Assembly: GCF_041146345.1 (NCBI RefSeq)
Contig: NW_027191402.1
Location: 1,054,001-1,118,000 of the forward strand
Direction of reading: 5' to 3'
Source of the DNA: Neodothiora populina
Taxonomy: Eukaryota
DNA: 64,000 bases
Shown: positions 31,618 through 58,568 of the stretch, in pieces
Layout: every line of letters starts with the position of its first letter
Position numbering within the stretch: position 1 is the first letter of the stretch
Notes under the pieces: generated by a model
What the model saw: the letters and a program-made list of their open reading frames with translations, nothing else
Databases searched by the model: none
What the model was told of the DNA's origin: nothing
Position numbers and translations under genes: made by a program

Positions 31618-33018
31618 TTTTATTTTATTTTATTTTATTTCTCTCTATAATCCTTCTCAAGGGATGGAGCAAGAGGGATGATGCGGTCTGGGGACTTTTT
31701 CTTGTCTGGCAAAGCTATGAAATCGCTGGAGCTTAAGCTGTGTATAGATCTGATTGATGTAGCTATACTAACTCAGCAGGGTTAAATTGGATCTCGTGCT
31801 TTGTAGGAACAACACAGTACAGTGCAAGGATAGTATGACACCGCGGGATGTATCGATATCTGTAACTTACCTACTCTACCCCTCAGTACTGTATTTCTGT
31901 TATGTTCCATATACCTGGGCAAGGTGGGGTCATTACTGTAGATAGGGGAACCTTGTAGCTCGCGTCAGCCGCGGCTATGATTGCGCCATCGAATCGAGCG
32001 TAGATCTCCAGGCAGCAACCCATCGTATCTTGTGTAATAATCATTCATTTATGTTGAACACACATGAGTAAGTCGTGTTCAGCCAGTACTCCCTGTGTTA
32101 TCGCTATGCATACTGCAGAATCTCGGGACCTGTGATGCGTATCTCAGGCTCAGAGCACTGTTGGCGGGGTTCCAGGACTTCTCTCGATGAGTCAGCTAAT
32201 GTAAATTATCGAACTCTCTGTCATCCATTGGGACAGGTTCAGCGATCCGGAATCATTGTATAAAAATCATATCCACTGTACGAAACATGCACGACAGAAT
32301 CTTAAAATATTTGTCTGTAGGATAAATACCGGAAGATATGGAGGATTTGGAATTGAAGATGCCGTTGTGAACGAAACATAAGTGGACGTTCCTAGGAAAG
32401 ATGTACTTGAGTCGAACAGAGAAGTCCTGTCCTTCGCGACCTCGAGGCCAGAAAGAATCGTGCCCTTCCTCACCTTACTTTACGATAATGTGCGACAAAA
32501 CGAGAAGACCTTCTCTATCTTAGCGAGATCTAATGTTAGACAGCATCATAGGGTAGGTATTTTGCTTTACTGTACTTTGTTACAATAATCAAGGTGAAGC
32601 GAGAATTCAGGGTCCACCAAGGTGCTCTAATCCACATTCGGACAACAATCCGGAAACGGACATTGTGCCCTTCCAGCTCGAGGCATTCGACAGTGACTCC
32701 AACATACTGTGCCAGCCCCCCGATTTATCACGACTATGGAACACGATGTTATTCCGCATGCGACAATACCTGTCATAGTGGTACAATAAGAAGAACACAA
32801 AGGATGTTGGATCATAAAGAGAAGGTGAGGTGAAGCGGCTGCGACTTCTATCTCTTCTCTCCTTCCCTTCTTCCTTGTGGCAAGTAAATACAATCCGTCT
32901 CCCTTGGTCTGGATTTCTTTCTCTGGTCATACGGGTCATACGCCTTGCAACTTATCAAGTCTCGATACACAACAAGAACTCAACAACACTCCTTTCTTTC
33001 CTTCTCGGTGTGACAACA

Positions 33019-34755
33019 ATGGCAGGACTGAGACGTCTGCTCGGTTATTTCAGCCCTGCATCTACTGCGCCCACGCGTAAACTCGCCGGTACCCGAAACA
33101 ACCACCAGCAACATCATCATCGTCAAGATCATCATAATCGACCTGTATACTATGATGAAGTGACCTCTCCGAGCGAGTTTCCTATATTCGACTTTTCACC
33201 TGCGCAGAATGCTACAAGTCCCTCACGTCGTAGTAATTGGGCGGCCTTCGACCTTTTGCCTGCTGATGCGTTGAAACACGATATCCCCGTCAAAGGTAGA
33301 AGTGTGCCCGGTGTTTCTCTGAAACGCAAAGCCAACGCTGAACATGAACTCGGTGCATCACGCAACGGCAAAAGAGCCAAGGTCATCGCTCTTAATGACG
33401 AGACAGAAGATGAACTAAATGGAAGTACGTTTGTTGATCTGACTACTGAAGATGATGATGATGGTGACGATGATGAGCAACTGAAGGATCTGCATGCTAG
33501 GGGTCATCAATGGCAAGATCATGACGAAGGGGATCAAACTTTGCTTAACGTCGACGTGGAGGAAGATGATACCATCGTTGTTGATCCTGTTCCTTCCTTG
33601 TCCAGTGTCGAGCAAGGCGACGATCATGACGACGAAGAGCAAGAACCCGCCCATCCAGAGGCTCGATTAATCCCTGGGTCCGTCGCACACACGAATCTGC
33701 AAGCTCAGCATCATGACCCACTGCCAGAGCAACTCCATGCACTGCCTGAGGTCCAAGCTGGACAAGAAGCAGCATCAGCAGCAGCGGACAACCGACCGCT
33801 TCGCATCATTCGCCAATTCCGTCGCACGCTCAATGCTCCTCATTCGCCCCTGACCCCATCCATTTTCATCAGCGAACAATCTCTTCTCGATCTCGGCTGG
33901 CCAGACGACACTGTGTGCCTTATCCAAAAGCTACATCAGCGTGGTCGTGAGCCCATTTTACCCTCACACTGGCAGATGGATTTTGAGTACCTTCCCGCAG
34001 AGCTTTTCTTTCCTGTCGCCATGGTCGATCGTTTGCCAGAAGACAGTTTGCCTTTCATTCGATCTTTAGGCCATCGACCTGACTTCCACGCGTCCAGAGC
34101 TCTCGGTATATTGTTTCGTCTACCTAGTCGAGCGCGTGATCGTGTTCAGATGGACTTGCCGCCCGAGGCTACGCTCGAACGGGGTATTGCAGCTTATCTG
34201 ACTTGGGCCTATGCAGATGCCGGCATACCTGCCCCGTCAACTGCAGATCTTAACCCTAACCGAACCCCTCGAAGGATTGCATTAACTCTTCAGGATCCCG
34301 GAGTTCAGCGGATGCCACAACTCGTCGTTACTCACACTTGTCCGCGAACGCTGGACTCCAAACATCTTGAGCACGCAGTTTTGAAAGAACTGAACACTCT
34401 ACATCAAGCCTGGAGAAGACATCTGGCACACCTCGAACAATGCCTGACGGACGATGCTGTCTTCTGGGACGAAGTCGAACCTCCAACCGTCTACGCAATC
34501 GTCATTTCCCATACGAACATCGCCATCGTATCATATGCCGGTACAGCGATGCGTCAAGTCGGCCATTTCGACCTCGGCGTCGATGGCCTGGATGTTTGGA
34601 ACGCACTCGCTTTGTCGATTGTAGCCATTCATGTCAGAAACGTGTGCAGTGCAGTCTTCGAGGTCTATGCGGATCTCTTGTCGGACGAAGGAGGGATTGG
34701 CAGTGGGGATGGAGGTGCTGCAAGTCACGATGACAATGATGATCCAGATCTTTGA
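33019..34755 (+). CDS. Hypothetical protein with an acidic/His-rich disordered N-half and an ordered C-terminal domain
   Basis: Long open frame with a good ATG context (ACAATGG). The C-half (RGREPILPSHWQMDF..PPTVYAIVISHT..DVWNALALSIV) looks like a folded fungal domain of unknown function. Confidence 0.75.
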   Translation: MAGLRRLLGYFSPASTAPTRKLAGTRNNHQQHHHRQDHHNRPVYYDEVTSPSEFPIFDFSPAQNATSPSRRSNWAAFDLLPADALKHDIPVKGRSVPGVSLKRKANAEHELGASRNGKRAKVIALNDETEDELNGSTFVDLTTEDDDDGDDDEQLKDLHARGHQWQDHDEGDQTLLNVDVEEDDTIVVDPVPSLSSVEQGDDHDDEEQEPAHPEARLIPGSVAHTNLQAQHHDPLPEQLHALPEVQAGQEAASAAADNRPLRIIRQFRRTLNAPHSPLTPSIFISEQSLLDLGWPDDTVCLIQKLHQRGREPILPSHWQMDFEYLPAELFFPVAMVDRLPEDSLPFIRSLGHRPDFHASRALGILFRLPSRARDRVQMDLPPEATLERGIAAYLTWAYADAGIPAPSTADLNPNRTPRRIALTLQDPGVQRMPQLVVTHTCPRTLDSKHLEHAVLKELNTLHQAWRRHLAHLEQCLTDDAVFWDEVEPPTVYAIVISHTNIAIVSYAGTAMRQVGHFDLGVDGLDVWNALALSIVAIHVRNVCSAVFEVYADLLSDEGGIGSGDGGAASHDDNDDPDL

Positions 34756-35082: not shown

Positions 35083-35420
35083 GTACAAATGGAGTCGTTT
35101 GTCGTCATGAACCATTTACTTACCATGTAGTCATTAGGGATACACCATGTAGTCATTAAGAACTCACATAGTCATGAGGACATGGACAATCGATCAGTGT
35201 TTCATTGACTGTTCACTGAGAACCCGACAACTCTTCACTTGACACTCACTGATCATCTATCAGGAAGTCGTTGACCATCTACCGAGTGGTCATTAAAAGC
35301 TCGTTAACTGTTCATCGGGAGATCATTCATTATTCATTATTCGTTAGGAGTTCATTGTCTGTTCACCAGAGACTCATTACCTGTTCATCCTAAACTCATC
35401 AGTCTCACCGGCCATTCAAT
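35083..35420. repeat. Degenerate 11/22-bp tandem array, copy 1 (consensus about AGAGACTCATTGCCTGTTCATT)
   Basis: Units with a 22-nt period, e.g. ACCATGTAGTCATTA at 35122 and 35144, AGGAGTTCATTGTCTGTTCACC and AGAGACTCATTACCTGTTCATC. Confidence 0.8.
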
Positions 35421-35749
35421 ATCAGGCCATCAAGTAGAACGGAGCTGCTTCGCACAGGCATAACATTGAAGTGGACGAGCAGCGAGAGTAGCAATCCAAT
35501 CACAAAAAGCTAAAAAATTATCACAGGCAGGCATATCGAAGGCAGGAAGGAAAAGGAGCCCCACGCAGTGGCGCCGTCCGCGCAGGACAACACCACGGCG
35601 TGGGGAAACAAGATGGGAAGTCTATGGAATGTGTGCAATCAAATGAATCGGGCTAGCGTGTCTATGCACTACGTGTCACCTACTCGCGACAGAGGTGAGT
35701 GGGGGGTATATCTTTTTCTCGTCAATCGTTTCTTCGGGTCGTGCTTCAC

Positions 35750-53796: not shown

Positions 53797-54626
53797 AACT
53801 GGCGTTACCAACAGCATGGGTCGACACGATAGTAGCGCTTCCTGTGTCGGAAGCTGCATGAATGACAGATGAGCATATCTGGCATTTGCACTAGATCTTG
53901 TTGTTCTCTAGATGGCGAACGTTATACTGTAGATTCGCATCGGATGAAGATCCGACTGGCCCGCCTTTTTTGCTTCTTCCGTAGCATCACTAGCACAACT
54001 CAGGGAGGAACTCGAGTCTGCTCCGAGATCCGAACATCCCATGCGGTTGATATTGGAAGTCTAATTTTTAGACTTTGGTAAATCAGCATCCGGATGCACA
54101 TTCTCCATGCAAACAAGAGGGGGAGAGTGGGGGGTTGTTCTTCTGATTCGCGCGATTGTGGAAAAGGAAGCAGCACCGCAGTTAGTTTCCAAATATCGGG
54201 ATGACACGCAGAAGCGTGGGAAAGCCGGGACGGATGTCGCCGAAGCAGACCCGTATATCCACGAGACCGTTCTATCTTGGCACACGCGAACACGAACGGT
54301 CGAAATACCAACGCGCCTACATCCCGATTTAAGTAACACCTTACAGTTTGGTTGTTGGCGCAATAGGTGGAAAGAAATGTTCCAGATGCGCACCATCTAC
54401 CTTAGTGTCACTTACCGGTAACCGAGAACATCTCGCATCTTATCCAAAAGCCGACGGTGCAGCGCTTGGCGCTTCTAGGCTCTCTTGCCGATCCATTAGT
54501 CTCCGCCCCTCGGCGACAACTCCTTTTACTATCAAAAGGCTTTTGCGCATTCGCTTGCTGCTTTGTTCATGCGCAGATGGATGGTCCTGAAAAAAGGGCA
54601 TCTTCTCCTCTCGACAACGACGAAAA

Positions 54627-55536
54627 ATGTCCACGCGGAGGAAGAGCGCCTTTCAGAAAAGACAATTCACCTTTGTCAATCTAACAGATCCTGTACAAGC
54701 AGAACACGAGATCATCCGCAAGCAGGTACGCTCGGCTGCAGCATTCGAAGGATGGGCGGAGACCAGAAAATCCGAAACGGAAATCCCAGTCGTAGTCCGA
54801 AAGAAAAAGTCCAAGTCCAGAAAATTTGATAGTGTTGCAGAATCCGACAGTTCAACAAGTCCTCCGGAATGCTCTGAAACGAGACATGACTCGAAGTCTC
54901 ATGAGATTGTTTTGAACTTGAAGGTGCTTGGGTCTGGAAATTCGGATCCATTCCGCGCGTGTCCGGTCGAATCGCAGCCATGGTTTGGATGGGTGATGGA
55001 CTACCGTAAGTCGATGCTTAATCGCGAAATTCGAATGTCACGTTTGACAAGTGTTAGTTCGCACGACCATCGCGCCTAGAGGTCTCCGTGCGCTACATTT
55101 CTCGTCGAATTCTATCAAACAGCATCTCGAATTCACCGACAGCCTAATGATGGACGAGCCTGCAATGTTTTACATGTGTCTCTTTCGATCAGCCAGCATA
55201 CTCTTGTCTCAAGGTCTATTGTCTCCAGAAGCGACTATTTGGCTTCGTGGGCAGACGATAAAATCGATCAGGGATGCTCTATGTGATCCGCGCCGTGCAA
55301 CGAGCGACGCCATGATACTGACAGTAGCGTGCATCTCTGCGCATGAGTGTATATATGGCGACAAGGATGAGTCCATCAACATTCACGCGCGAGCATATCG
55401 ACACATGATAGAATTGGTGGGCGGTTTGGAAGATTGGCAAACAAGGACGATCATGAAACAAATGATCATTCGCTACGATAACACAGTTGCACATTTAACA
55501 GGCACCGAACGAGCTTACTCTGCTCTACAACAGTAA
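54627..55536 (+). CDS. Hypothetical fungal protein resembling the regulatory domain of fungal-specific transcription factors; intron 55006-55057
   Basis: FTFVN..IRKQV, GNSDPF, SDAMILTV and H..AY..MIELVGGL patterns; no Zn2Cys6 motif seen. Confidence 0.65.
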
Positions 55537-56536
55537 GTAGAGTTGTCTCAACGTCTCATTATAATGCTAATTCTTCGTAGCAAATACGATTTAGGACATT
55601 TAGACACGTGAAGACACTGTCTACTGCTTCACTGCGATGCTATCCATTGAATCACAGGCTGCACGCACTCTCTTGAAGCGAGTGGCGTGATACCGAGGGG
55701 GGGCCACTTTTAGCCAGCTGCTCGCTCCTCCAGCACGTGCAAATGAACATGACTATCCGACCACGGGAGACTTACCCCATCTACCCTAAACATCCCTGCT
55801 CCTTCCGGACGCGAATCCCGGGGGTGGAGTTTTCTGATAGGAGCAAGGAAGAAATGCGCTAGATAGATTATGCAAAGATCAGATACGACGTGATACGACC
55901 GAGGAAGTCCTGATCTATGAGGCCATGACATTACAGGCATCTTTTTCTCAATTCCTTTTAGCCTGTCAGCATCGGTCGCCCAAGTCGGGGAGATACAACT
56001 TGGCCCCAGCTCCTAATCATGGCCGGCCCAAGGATTCTTGTCCTATCGCTTGGTCGTCGCACATCGACTCAGCGGCTCTGGTTTGTCGCCCTGTCGCCGT
56101 CGAATGAGCATAATCCTAGAAGTGAAGGAGAAGGTCGGCCTTCTTTCTTCCGCCCGACCAGAGACGTTATGCTAGATCAAAAGAAACGACAGCTCTGCTG
56201 TAAGGTAGCAATGCCTCCATAATCAGCGCCCCTGCCCCAGTCTGCATTGCCAGTCGTGAAAGACTCGGCACCAGGCAGCACGGATCCTCCTTCCGCCCCT
56301 TTTGCCACTCCTATCACTGCTGGTGCCGACAGGGGAGAGAGCAGACAGGGCATAAATTCGATACTCCCTCCAATATCCTCGAAATTCAATAGATATACAT
56401 TACCTTATGCTGAGATTCATAGGCTTATATGGCTCCTTATATATGACCTGGAGTCTGACTGAAATCCACCTGCTTGCCTCGCCACTCTTCTATCTGACCA
56501 CGCGCCCACGAGCCAATAAATGTATATGACATCAGC

Positions 56537-56938
56537 TAATGAATGGTCAATGAGCTTAGAGTGAACAGGCAATGAGTCTCTAATGAATAGGCAATAATTT
56601 TCTAGTAGACGAGTGATGAGTTCTCAATGAACAGGCAATGAGTCTGAAAACGATAATCAATAAGTTTTCAATGAACAGGTAACGGAATATCAGCGAATAG
56701 CTAACACATTTCTAATGAACAGGCAACTAGGTCTCAACGAATGGCCGACGAATCTCTGATGAACAGGCAACAGAGTTTCGAAAAATAGTTGAAGGGTTGC
56801 TAATGTATAGGCAGGTAATGAGTTCTCAACGAATAATGAATGATTTTTGAGTGTAGTGCCAACGAAATAGTCAATACAATGAGTTTATGTATGACTTCCC
56901 GGTGAATGGTCAATGACTCAAAACGAGTTCCTTTGTAC
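56537..56938. repeat. Degenerate 11/22-bp tandem array, copy 2 (inverted relative to copy 1)
   Basis: About 17 units of roughly 22 nt. RRTGAACAGGYAA starts at 56560, 56626, 56670, 56714 and 56758 (spacing 66, 44, 44, 44). Confidence 0.88.
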
Positions 56939-57038
56939 GGTAGGACACATATAAATGGGAAGTCAAAAAAGATGCATATTGCTGGTGGGTATAAGGCTAT
57001 CTAGGAAAAAATGCATAATAGAAGAAGCAAGGATATGA

Positions 57039-58313
57039 CTAAGGTCTGGGTCCTTTCACAGTTTTGAGTAGACTCTGAGTCTTTTGTGTACGGCTCAGCC
57101 CAACTCGATGCACACCGCCACTGCCTGTACGTCTTGCGATCGGGTTCCGCGGTGGATTACTGCGTGCTGCTTCGGTAGTTGTTGGTTCCGTTGCTTGGTT
57201 GGGTTCGTCCTCTCCGGCAGGGGGGTAGCGCTCATTAAGCGCGTCGAGTATCGACTTCACATCATGTGGCTTCTCGACTTCTATCGTTTGAGGTTTCTCT
57301 GGCGGCGTTATGACGACTTGCACTTCGCCTCTCACCGTGCCATGTGTTAAAGAAGTATCTTCAGTAATATTCTCAGGCTCTGGTTGCCGGATCTTCTTGG
57401 GTCTCCCGCGTTTCCTGGGAGTCTTTTCTTTTCTTTCGAGCAGAGAAGAGGATTCATCACCTACGAGCACCGGAGGTGACAGAGCTTCGAATTCGGGTGT
57501 CTGCAAGATTGGGTTCTGGGGGAAAATTGATGATGTCATGTCCATCGAAGATGATTCTGCTCCTCCCATTGTTTTCGCACGCTCTGGTTTCCTCGTCGAG
57601 GCTTCGTCTGAGGATTGAGTATCGTCAAAGGCAAAAGACATTTGCTCGGAACGTGAGCGGCCTGGACAAGACTGCTTGGCCACTCTAGGAAGGCTGGCAG
57701 AATGACTGTCTGAGTTGAGGCCAAGCAAATAATCATCAGAAGTAAGTGGATCACTGCCGATATGCTTTGTAACGTTTTCTTCGTTGCCTGATGCACCTCC
57801 AAGTACAATGGAACATGCAGACCAAGGCGTCATATTGTTGCCTCCTGAAGAAGTCTCTCCATGTTGAGGTTGATGGATAAGTTGGGATGTGCTCAGTTCC
57901 GGAGTTGGGACTGTCGGTCCCGGTATAGTGCTTTCGCAGGTAGATTCAACGACAGGAGTAGTCTTGATCCTCTTTAGTTTCCCAGCAAGAGGCATCGAGA
58001 CGGCGCTGGTAGAGACGGCACTGGTAGAGACGACTCTTTTTTTCGTGATTCTGGAAGCAGAGGGTGTGTTCGAAACAACGATAGTGTCGTTTCCATATTG
58101 AGTAGGAGCCATGAGGTCCAAATCAGCTCGTTGGAGAAGTTCACTAGTTGAGTCGGTACCTGTACTTTGGAGTTGTTTTCCTTCTAGCTGTATGAAAGGC
58201 GTTTCCCCGCTGGCTTTTGAAGTCATCGCGCCTTGGTGACGTCTGGACTCCAAAACAAGATCTAATTCAGGTTCCTCTTGAGAATCGGGTATTTCTTTCA
58301 ATGAACCCGGCAT
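57039..58313 (-). CDS. Disordered AT-hook-containing hypothetical protein
   Basis: The first in-frame ATG gives MPGSLKEIPDSQEE. The protein is Ser/Thr/Pro/Glu-rich, has an AT-hook (PRKRGRPKK) and ends HRVGLSRTQKTQSLLK. Confidence 0.75.
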   Translation of the reverse strand: MPGSLKEIPDSQEEPELDLVLESRRHQGAMTSKASGETPFIQLEGKQLQSTGTDSTSELLQRADLDLMAPTQYGNDTIVVSNTPSASRITKKRVVSTSAVSTSAVSMPLAGKLKRIKTTPVVESTCESTIPGPTVPTPELSTSQLIHQPQHGETSSGGNNMTPWSACSIVLGGASGNEENVTKHIGSDPLTSDDYLLGLNSDSHSASLPRVAKQSCPGRSRSEQMSFAFDDTQSSDEASTRKPERAKTMGGAESSSMDMTSSIFPQNPILQTPEFEALSPPVLVGDESSSLLERKEKTPRKRGRPKKIRQPEPENITEDTSLTHGTVRGEVQVVITPPEKPQTIEVEKPHDVKSILDALNERYPPAGEDEPNQATEPTTTEAARSNPPRNPIARRTGSGGVHRVGLSRTQKTQSLLKTVKGPRP

Positions 58314-58568
58314 AGTTGGAAATTCGTCCACATTTTGTCTGACTCCCAGATTGTTCCTGATGAGCGGAAAAATGAGATCCTCATAACTGTATCTTCTCTA
58401 CTGTATTGTGTAGGGAGATCGCGACTGGGAGGACGCGTTTTGACTATCAAGGAAGTCGCGTTGGCACGTGCAGCTTTGCCAAGAAGTTTATTGACGGACG
58501 TCACAGCCATGTGATTCTGGATGCATGTGCTATAACATAACAACTAGACACACCGATGGCTTGACAAG

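Follow-up and report, generated by a model that had tools for sequence, protein, structure and literature searches.

An apparently undescribed MITE family built on an 11-bp unit array and clustered in a few regions of the Neodothiora populina genome

Two 11-bp-periodic arrays on contig C4 of Neodothiora populina belong, very probably, to an old family of cut-and-paste DNA transposons that are non-autonomous (non-autonomous TIR transposons, MITEs) and no longer mobile, a family that is apparently undescribed, with 'undescribed' a provisional term. The window, i.e. the whole 64,000-bp stretch of DNA analysed (C4:1054001-1118000), lies in an assembly of 23.96 Mb and 18 contigs, and its gene content (VPS11, GDE1, DDHD, permeases) is of the filamentous ascomycete type. 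A scan of the window for matches at lags of 11, 22, 33 and 44 bp recovered only two strong periodic regions, copy A at about 56.5 kb (z = 9.9) and copy B at about 35.1 kb (z = 9.0), with the next unrelated scan window at 1.9, and these are the two arrays of 11/22/44-bp periodicity that the first-pass annotation had picked out. The 44-bp phasing described for the best units holds in copy A, where periodicity is maximal at lag 44 (0.53; 0.60 over four units); copy B instead has its maximum at lags 22/33. The features of the two copies are:

56534 to 56937, minus strand: copy A, a right-truncated member of the MITE family with a left TIR and about 34 units of 11 bp
56909 to 56937, minus strand: left TIR of copy A, 2/29 mismatches to the family consensus
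56919 to 56937, minus strand: 19-bp tip of copy A
56936 to 56937: TA of the copy A tip, a putative target-site duplication
56534 to 56918, minus strand: array of 11-bp units in copy A, in which two unit types alternate (22 bp) with a 44-bp higher order
35084 to 35454, plus strand: copy B (371 bp), an old family member that probably has both ends
35084 to 35112, plus strand: left TIR of copy B, 8/29 mismatches, PWM score 21 bits, TA at 35084-35085
35426 to 35454, minus strand: right TIR of copy B, degenerate (10/29 mismatches) and under the 10-bit cut of the profile scan, hence weak

The last unit of copy A (56534-56544) was called by eye from the sequence, and a TIR profile search found no right TIR for this copy. 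No listed ORF of at least 120 aa covers either array, in agreement with their description as non-coding, and the odd internal variant ATCATTCATTATTC is indeed present in both, close to the left end of A but to the right end of B. The array of copy A is not an assembly artefact, because a contig of the DNA run (54130-58371) spans it with zero substitutions and two single-base gaps, both outside the array. Single bases absent from the DNA run at window positions 54590, 55697, 48498 and 63768 suggest single-base assembly errors; the spliced gene upstream of copy A is the site of the first two, which lie at or within it. The spliced contig of that gene stops at 56484, and copy A starts about 50 bp beyond. 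Long ORFs adjoin both copies (32818-34755, plus strand, beside B; 57039-58397, minus strand, beside A), neither of them with a Pfam family, and the latter contains an RKRGRPKK motif, which we take to be AT-hook-like.

The first-pass annotation had counted the element as present twice; used as a query, copy A led to further loci, each with ends that are inverted copies of one 29-bp motif, and the family total came to about 60 copies on 10 contigs with unrelated flanks, a modest number for a MITE and a lower bound derived from genome-wide patterns and from profile scans of chosen regions. Genome-wide TIR patterns gave 27 and 36 matches (reversed controls, 0), and an internal-pattern probe gave 24 (0 in controls) and added seven loci, every one a genuine array; one further copy was found at C4:994k. 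Profile scans of selected regions yielded 49 array stretches, two of which are halves of one copy, and three array-less minis of 86-90 bp occur at three places. None of the 49 arrays overlaps an ORF of at least 200 aa. The many dispersed copies, together with the shared inverted ends, TA tips and subfamilies described below, support the option of an undescribed non-autonomous mobile element that had been raised for copy A. No paper on this family turned up in the literature searched (few subscription journals covered), only general MITE papers, and none of the publications found on N. populina concerns transposons as far as titles and the opening of abstracts indicate. Exact-pattern scans of metagenome collections, which are poor in fungal DNA, returned no credible relative, the lone match being a GC-rich, coding-like stretch without an array, and a pattern scan of viral contigs, also with little fungal DNA, returned 0 matches.

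An intact copy consists of a 19-bp tip beginning with TA, n head-to-tail 11-bp units and the inverted tip; inward-facing TIR pairs are spaced 90-740 bp apart and copy size is 86-553 bp excluding inserts. A TIR of 29-30 bp scoring above 20 bits is found at both ends in 17 of the 49 arrays, and seven of these 17 two-ended copies measure exactly 38 + 11n bases (1.5 expected, p = 4e-4). The unit consensus, taken from a profile of 319 units, is RKTCATYRRNN, best conserved at T3 (86%), C4 (79%), A5 (79%) and T6 (73%), and the profile resolves two alternating types. TCA stands at unit positions 3-5 in 60% of 330 units and GTC occurs in 30% of units; random pairs of units are just 50% identical. At either end the terminal unit is nearly palindromic (AGTCAWTGACY) and brings the TIR to its full 29-30 bp, and the interior units retain the left half of this palindrome in one direction. 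Because the first and last units are near-palindromic and complete the TIR, the array reads as the amplified TIR motif, and we infer from these motifs that the inner part of the TIR may have been amplified in tandem to give it. Subfamily 1 comprises 12 array-bearing copies (69-92% pairwise identity) and subfamily 2 five (67-85%); large indels between members are mostly 11, 22 or 44 bp, and unit number ranges from 13 to more than 40, changing by whole units. Many copies are truncated and three hold foreign inserts. In several cases a right-end fragment sits about 10-250 bp from a complete copy (C6:1433836-1434353, C6:1372751-1373348, C4:1165047-1165433, C15:278386-279000). Folding gave z = -2.8, largely owing to the TIR stem; structured RNA was rejected (0 Rfam matches at gathering score at four loci), as was tRNA targeting, because only two loci out of 28, each some 3 kb long, contained a tRNA.

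The hand counts of identity between copies A and B (28/37 and 28/33) were reproduced, and their collinearity 'at both ends' stands for the left TIR end only, whereas the 28/33 match joins internal units. Against unit-shuffled controls the interior alignment scored 90.5 (p = 0.002) with 11-mers shuffled and was weaker (p = 0.033) with 22-mers, and although A and B are mutual best raw-score partners among the 49 arrays, they are so only weakly beyond their shared units. Their likeness is mostly shared family structure. The claim that phase was kept despite divergence holds imperfectly: copy A has 24 consecutive units without a register break, with three breaks (1, 6 and 4 bp) near its left end, but the 17 two-ended copies contain 30 register-breaking gaps in 3,777 bases. 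What looked like kept phase is better explained by divergence of units before insertion, in mobile lineages, together with length changes by whole units (11/22/44 bp).

The substitution pattern bears on what the array was for. We aligned subfamilies 1 (12 copies) and 2 (5) and took unit positions 2-6 as the core: private substitutions amount to 75/1482 (5.1%) in the core and 114/1776 (6.4%) elsewhere (p = 0.11, from a test of limited power that leans to a lower core rate), and shared alleles to 30/1482 (2.0%) and 69/1776 (3.9%), respectively (p = 0.002, with the counts made on a MAFFT alignment of repeats, in which unit misalignment could skew them). Since private hits are about even and shared variants spare the core, we read the data as constraint on core and phase for as long as a lineage kept moving, followed by neutral decay of each copy, and this favours a role in transposition over a role for the host. 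The latter had been proposed for copy A in the form of a phased array bound by protein (at a boundary, origin, pairing or SMC-loading site). Such an array, which could have been domesticated from the transposon, would agree with the near-helical period, the intergenic position close beyond the spliced contig of the neighbouring gene and the nominally lower private rate in the core. That rate, however, is not significantly lower, core and linker being hit about alike, the register-breaking gaps are numerous, many copies including A are truncated, three are interrupted by foreign inserts, and the distribution is very uneven, with no copy in 160 kb of control stretches, all of which makes a host-functional array very improbable.

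For the array itself we consider the chances about evenly balanced that it arose by amplification of the inner motif of the TIR and thereby provided extra predicted binding sites that favoured mobilisation. Under such a scheme, tandem amplification of the motif would have produced the end-to-end 11-bp array, which may have supplied extra sites for the transposase or a host factor, about one per helical turn and on one face of the DNA; these extra sites would have favoured mobilisation, slippage or unequal exchange would shift array length by whole units, and inserted copies, copy A included, would decay neutrally. The array was not required for movement, because the three array-less minis also dispersed. 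The spread of the minis to three places, and a unit number that ranges without restriction from 13 to more than 40 in whole-unit steps, the outcome expected of slippage, are also what one would see if the array of the same MITE were a functionless minisatellite, expanded from the inner 11-mer of the TIR and merely carried along. A neutral minisatellite should, however, diverge evenly across the unit, whereas here the units keep TCA at positions 3-5 at the frequency given above in spite of their low pairwise identity, and shared variants avoid the core; we regard this alternative, which concerns the role of the array only, as possible but doubtful.

Evidence on the mobilising enzyme comes from the tips. 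TA begins 43 of 51 well-scoring tips; position 1 (T) varies in 8/51 and position 2 (A) in 0/51, and such T-only variation is not predicted by a duplicated TA. Target duplications of the hAT, MULE, CACTA and IS3EU types are 3 to 10 bp long; in the 17 two-ended copies no duplication of 2-10 bp outside the TA recurs (best single case, 6/7), which is at odds with these types. No empty site for copy A was found in four sequencing runs, nor a relative's version of the site in runs of which such DNA made up a small share, which leaves the TA a putative target duplication. TA targets characterise Tc1/mariner-derived MITEs (PMC12595863, available part). We think it probable, at somewhat better than an even chance, that the TA is the duplicated target, so that the mobiliser would be an in-trans transposase of the IS630-Tc1-mariner type, now lost or too decayed to be found; this superfamily call draws solely on the TA and the TIR length, as neither a partner nor a relative was found. 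The partner search covered the DDE_3 and DDE_1 families, and its candidates (PF13358, DDE_3, three loci; PF03184, DDE_1, four loci) were rejected for their unrelated TIRs or ends and lack of an array. The partner transposase may be extinct.

These searches also brought up other repeats of the host. Two near-identical pogo-type transposons with 46-bp TIRs are located at C6:2875k (L075:888-2697) and C14:1011k (L076:805-2627), one with an open 559-aa frame and the other with a stop, and pogo relics with TIRs of 62-64 bp at C2:4k (L077:789-2645) and C2:44k (L074:909-2577). A Tc1-type gene at C18:34k (L071) has an open 345-aa frame and no TIR that we could find, and is possibly domesticated. The inserts in three MITE copies (C16:1178843-1179776, equal to L092:8843-9776; L011:1005-1524; L002:810-1547) are non-periodic and 300-700 bp long; two are single-copy in the genome and the third includes 92 bp of another dispersed repeat. 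The inserts carry ORF-like pieces, and the one on C16 resembles a frameshifted coiled-coil gene fragment. ORFs of the two single-copy inserts matched no Pfam family and gave weak Atlas matches with low recognition; three low-scoring matches to repeat-rich proteins were judged to be chance, and none was obtained among longer proteins. Another dispersed repeat, unrelated to the MITE, is some 170 bp long with 79-96% identity (L036:1497-1668 and L037-L040) and was found at C16:1397k, C14:7k, C5:1363k and C7:4k and 11k, all five copies within about 75 kb of contig ends, and part of it lies inside one MITE copy (L002:1280-1371).

The copies are strongly clustered. Phased scans detected 12 arrays in C16:1130-1230k, 13 in C6:1350-1440k (two weak), nine in C6:60-170k (one weak) and four in C4:994-1158k; 16 control stretches (160 kb) contained none, and 112 kb of 8-kb flanks around seven single copies contained no further array. 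The regions of the phased scan had been chosen for matches, and for this reason clustering was tested on the 28 elements found with genome-wide patterns: 16 of them have another element no more than 30 kb away, against a null expectation of 1.8 and at most 10 in any of 5,000 draws, and 12 lie near a copy of a different subfamily (null 1.4). Of the seven copies new to an independent probe, four have a known copy at a distance of 60 kb or less (p = 0.002). The same four regions of about 100 kb hold two copies each of subfamily 1 and one each of subfamily 2. Best partners fall within the same region for 13 of 41 copies (null 8.0, p = 0.08), mean similarity is 0.175 within and 0.179 between regions, and the closest pairs of copies sit in different regions. 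Segmental duplication of clusters was rejected, the best pairs having unrelated flanks (by eye).

The clustering itself is thus shown, and our preferred reading of its cause is regional insertion targeting. We give a shade more than an even chance to an ordinary origin of the clusters, namely local hopping in one ancestral chromosome or 3D neighbourhood that has since been split apart, a preference for certain chromatin, or tracts introgressed from a MITE-rich relative. Local hopping is well known for DNA transposons, and a few neighbours are close kin (C4:1032k/1037k, C6:1430k/1434k); none of the 28 TIR-found copies is on C1, C3, C13, C17 or C18 (35% of the assembly), although one C17 copy was found later, 18 of the 28 are no farther than 300 kb from a contig end, a zone that makes up 36% of the assembly, and introgression would also account for the absent partner. 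Such an origin is at odds with the closest pairs being in different regions and with the nature of the cluster regions, which are gene-rich, of normal GC and with housekeeping genes, and no AT-rich block was detected beside the C4 and C16 clusters in 20 sparse 500-bp probes (GC 0.41-0.60); on these probes, clustering next to centromeres was rejected. Local hopping in its simple form fits poorly, because the subfamilies co-recur, the closest pairs are interregional and similarity is the same within and between regions.

The same pattern, with copies of any subfamily near one another, both subfamilies in the same four regions, best partners not clearly enriched within a region and copies from the independent probe near known ones, would also be produced by self-homing, in which a copy on the move is held by its phased array to resident ones (by protein bridging or by RIP-like, recombination-independent DNA-DNA pairing), so that insertions pile up near older copies. 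For Drosophila, the idea that transposons home is an established one. In Neurospora, RIP recognises trinucleotide homology that recurs every 11 or 12 bp, with GAC the most efficient unit and TGA also enriched in the proficient pattern (PMC4858203, available part). The unit core of our arrays holds GTC and TCA, which are complementary to GAC and TGA, and a shared stretch of at least three bases occurs in 65% of unit pairs drawn at random (controls, 11%). With one core per turn and shared triplets, copies could therefore be mutually recognisable, which could produce homing. However, this match in geometry follows by construction from any repeat with a conserved core; C-to-T changes in the arrays are without RIP bias (CpA 0.112, CpT 0.111, CpC 0.123, CpG 0.133), although six of eight substitutions between the pogo copies at C6:2875k and C14:1011k are CpA/TpA, hinting at mild RIP in this host; the seven single copies have no neighbour in their 8-kb flanks; and the clusters are about 100 kb wide, more than direct tethering needs. 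We consider self-homing unlikely, and its further-reaching form, in which pairing or tethering would be open to every two copies at whatever 11-bp shift and new insertions would home to occupied regions, slightly more unlikely still.

Comparison with known systems sets the family apart in its interior. Short motifs repeated many times inward of the ends also occur in CACTA/EnSpm and hAT (Ac) elements and in foldback elements (Drosophila FB, Galileo), where they are usually read as transposase sites and are, as a rule, subterminal or mirrored in long inverted arms; unlike these, the present elements consist of one array from end to end, in a single direction and with a constant period, and a search for duplications of 3, 8 or 9 bp found none. 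The fungal mimp elements of impala are comparable MITEs that share the features next listed. As in Stowaway-like or Tc1/mariner-derived MITEs (PMC12595863, as far as its available text goes), the copies are short, non-coding, TIR-bounded, tipped with TA and near genes, and form subfamilies with common ends and different interiors. In contrast to Stowaway-like MITEs and mimp, the interior here is almost wholly a one-directional 11-bp array from the TIR's inner motif, copies number in the tens, regional clustering is strong and no partner transposase was found; the TIR is also unlike those of the pogo and Tc1 copies of the host. The conserved core per 11 bp with variable spacers recalls the synthetic RIP substrates of Neurospora (3H-8N, 4H-7N, 5H-6N), but those, in the available part of PMC4858203, are engineered, closely placed pairs with a 500-bp pattern, whereas the natural arrays are mostly 150-550 bp long, dispersed and free of RIP bias, and the resemblance is geometric only.

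The family represents an unannotated fungal MITE of unusual design, in which the TIR motif was, on our reading, amplified end to end at a near-helical period and the register of the array was kept across subfamilies with diverged spacers. It offers a clean natural case for selection on the phasing of binding sites in mobile DNA, and also a warning that arrays of this kind can mimic functional chromatin elements. The co-clustering of different subfamilies in a few core regions of 100 kb is a real pattern; if it were due to homing by the array, the targeting of a transposon would be tied to the recognition of 11-bp-periodic homology seen in RIP, and the family would then exploit, in nature, a recombination-independent form of DNA-DNA recognition that has until now been demonstrated with synthetic patterns in Neurospora.
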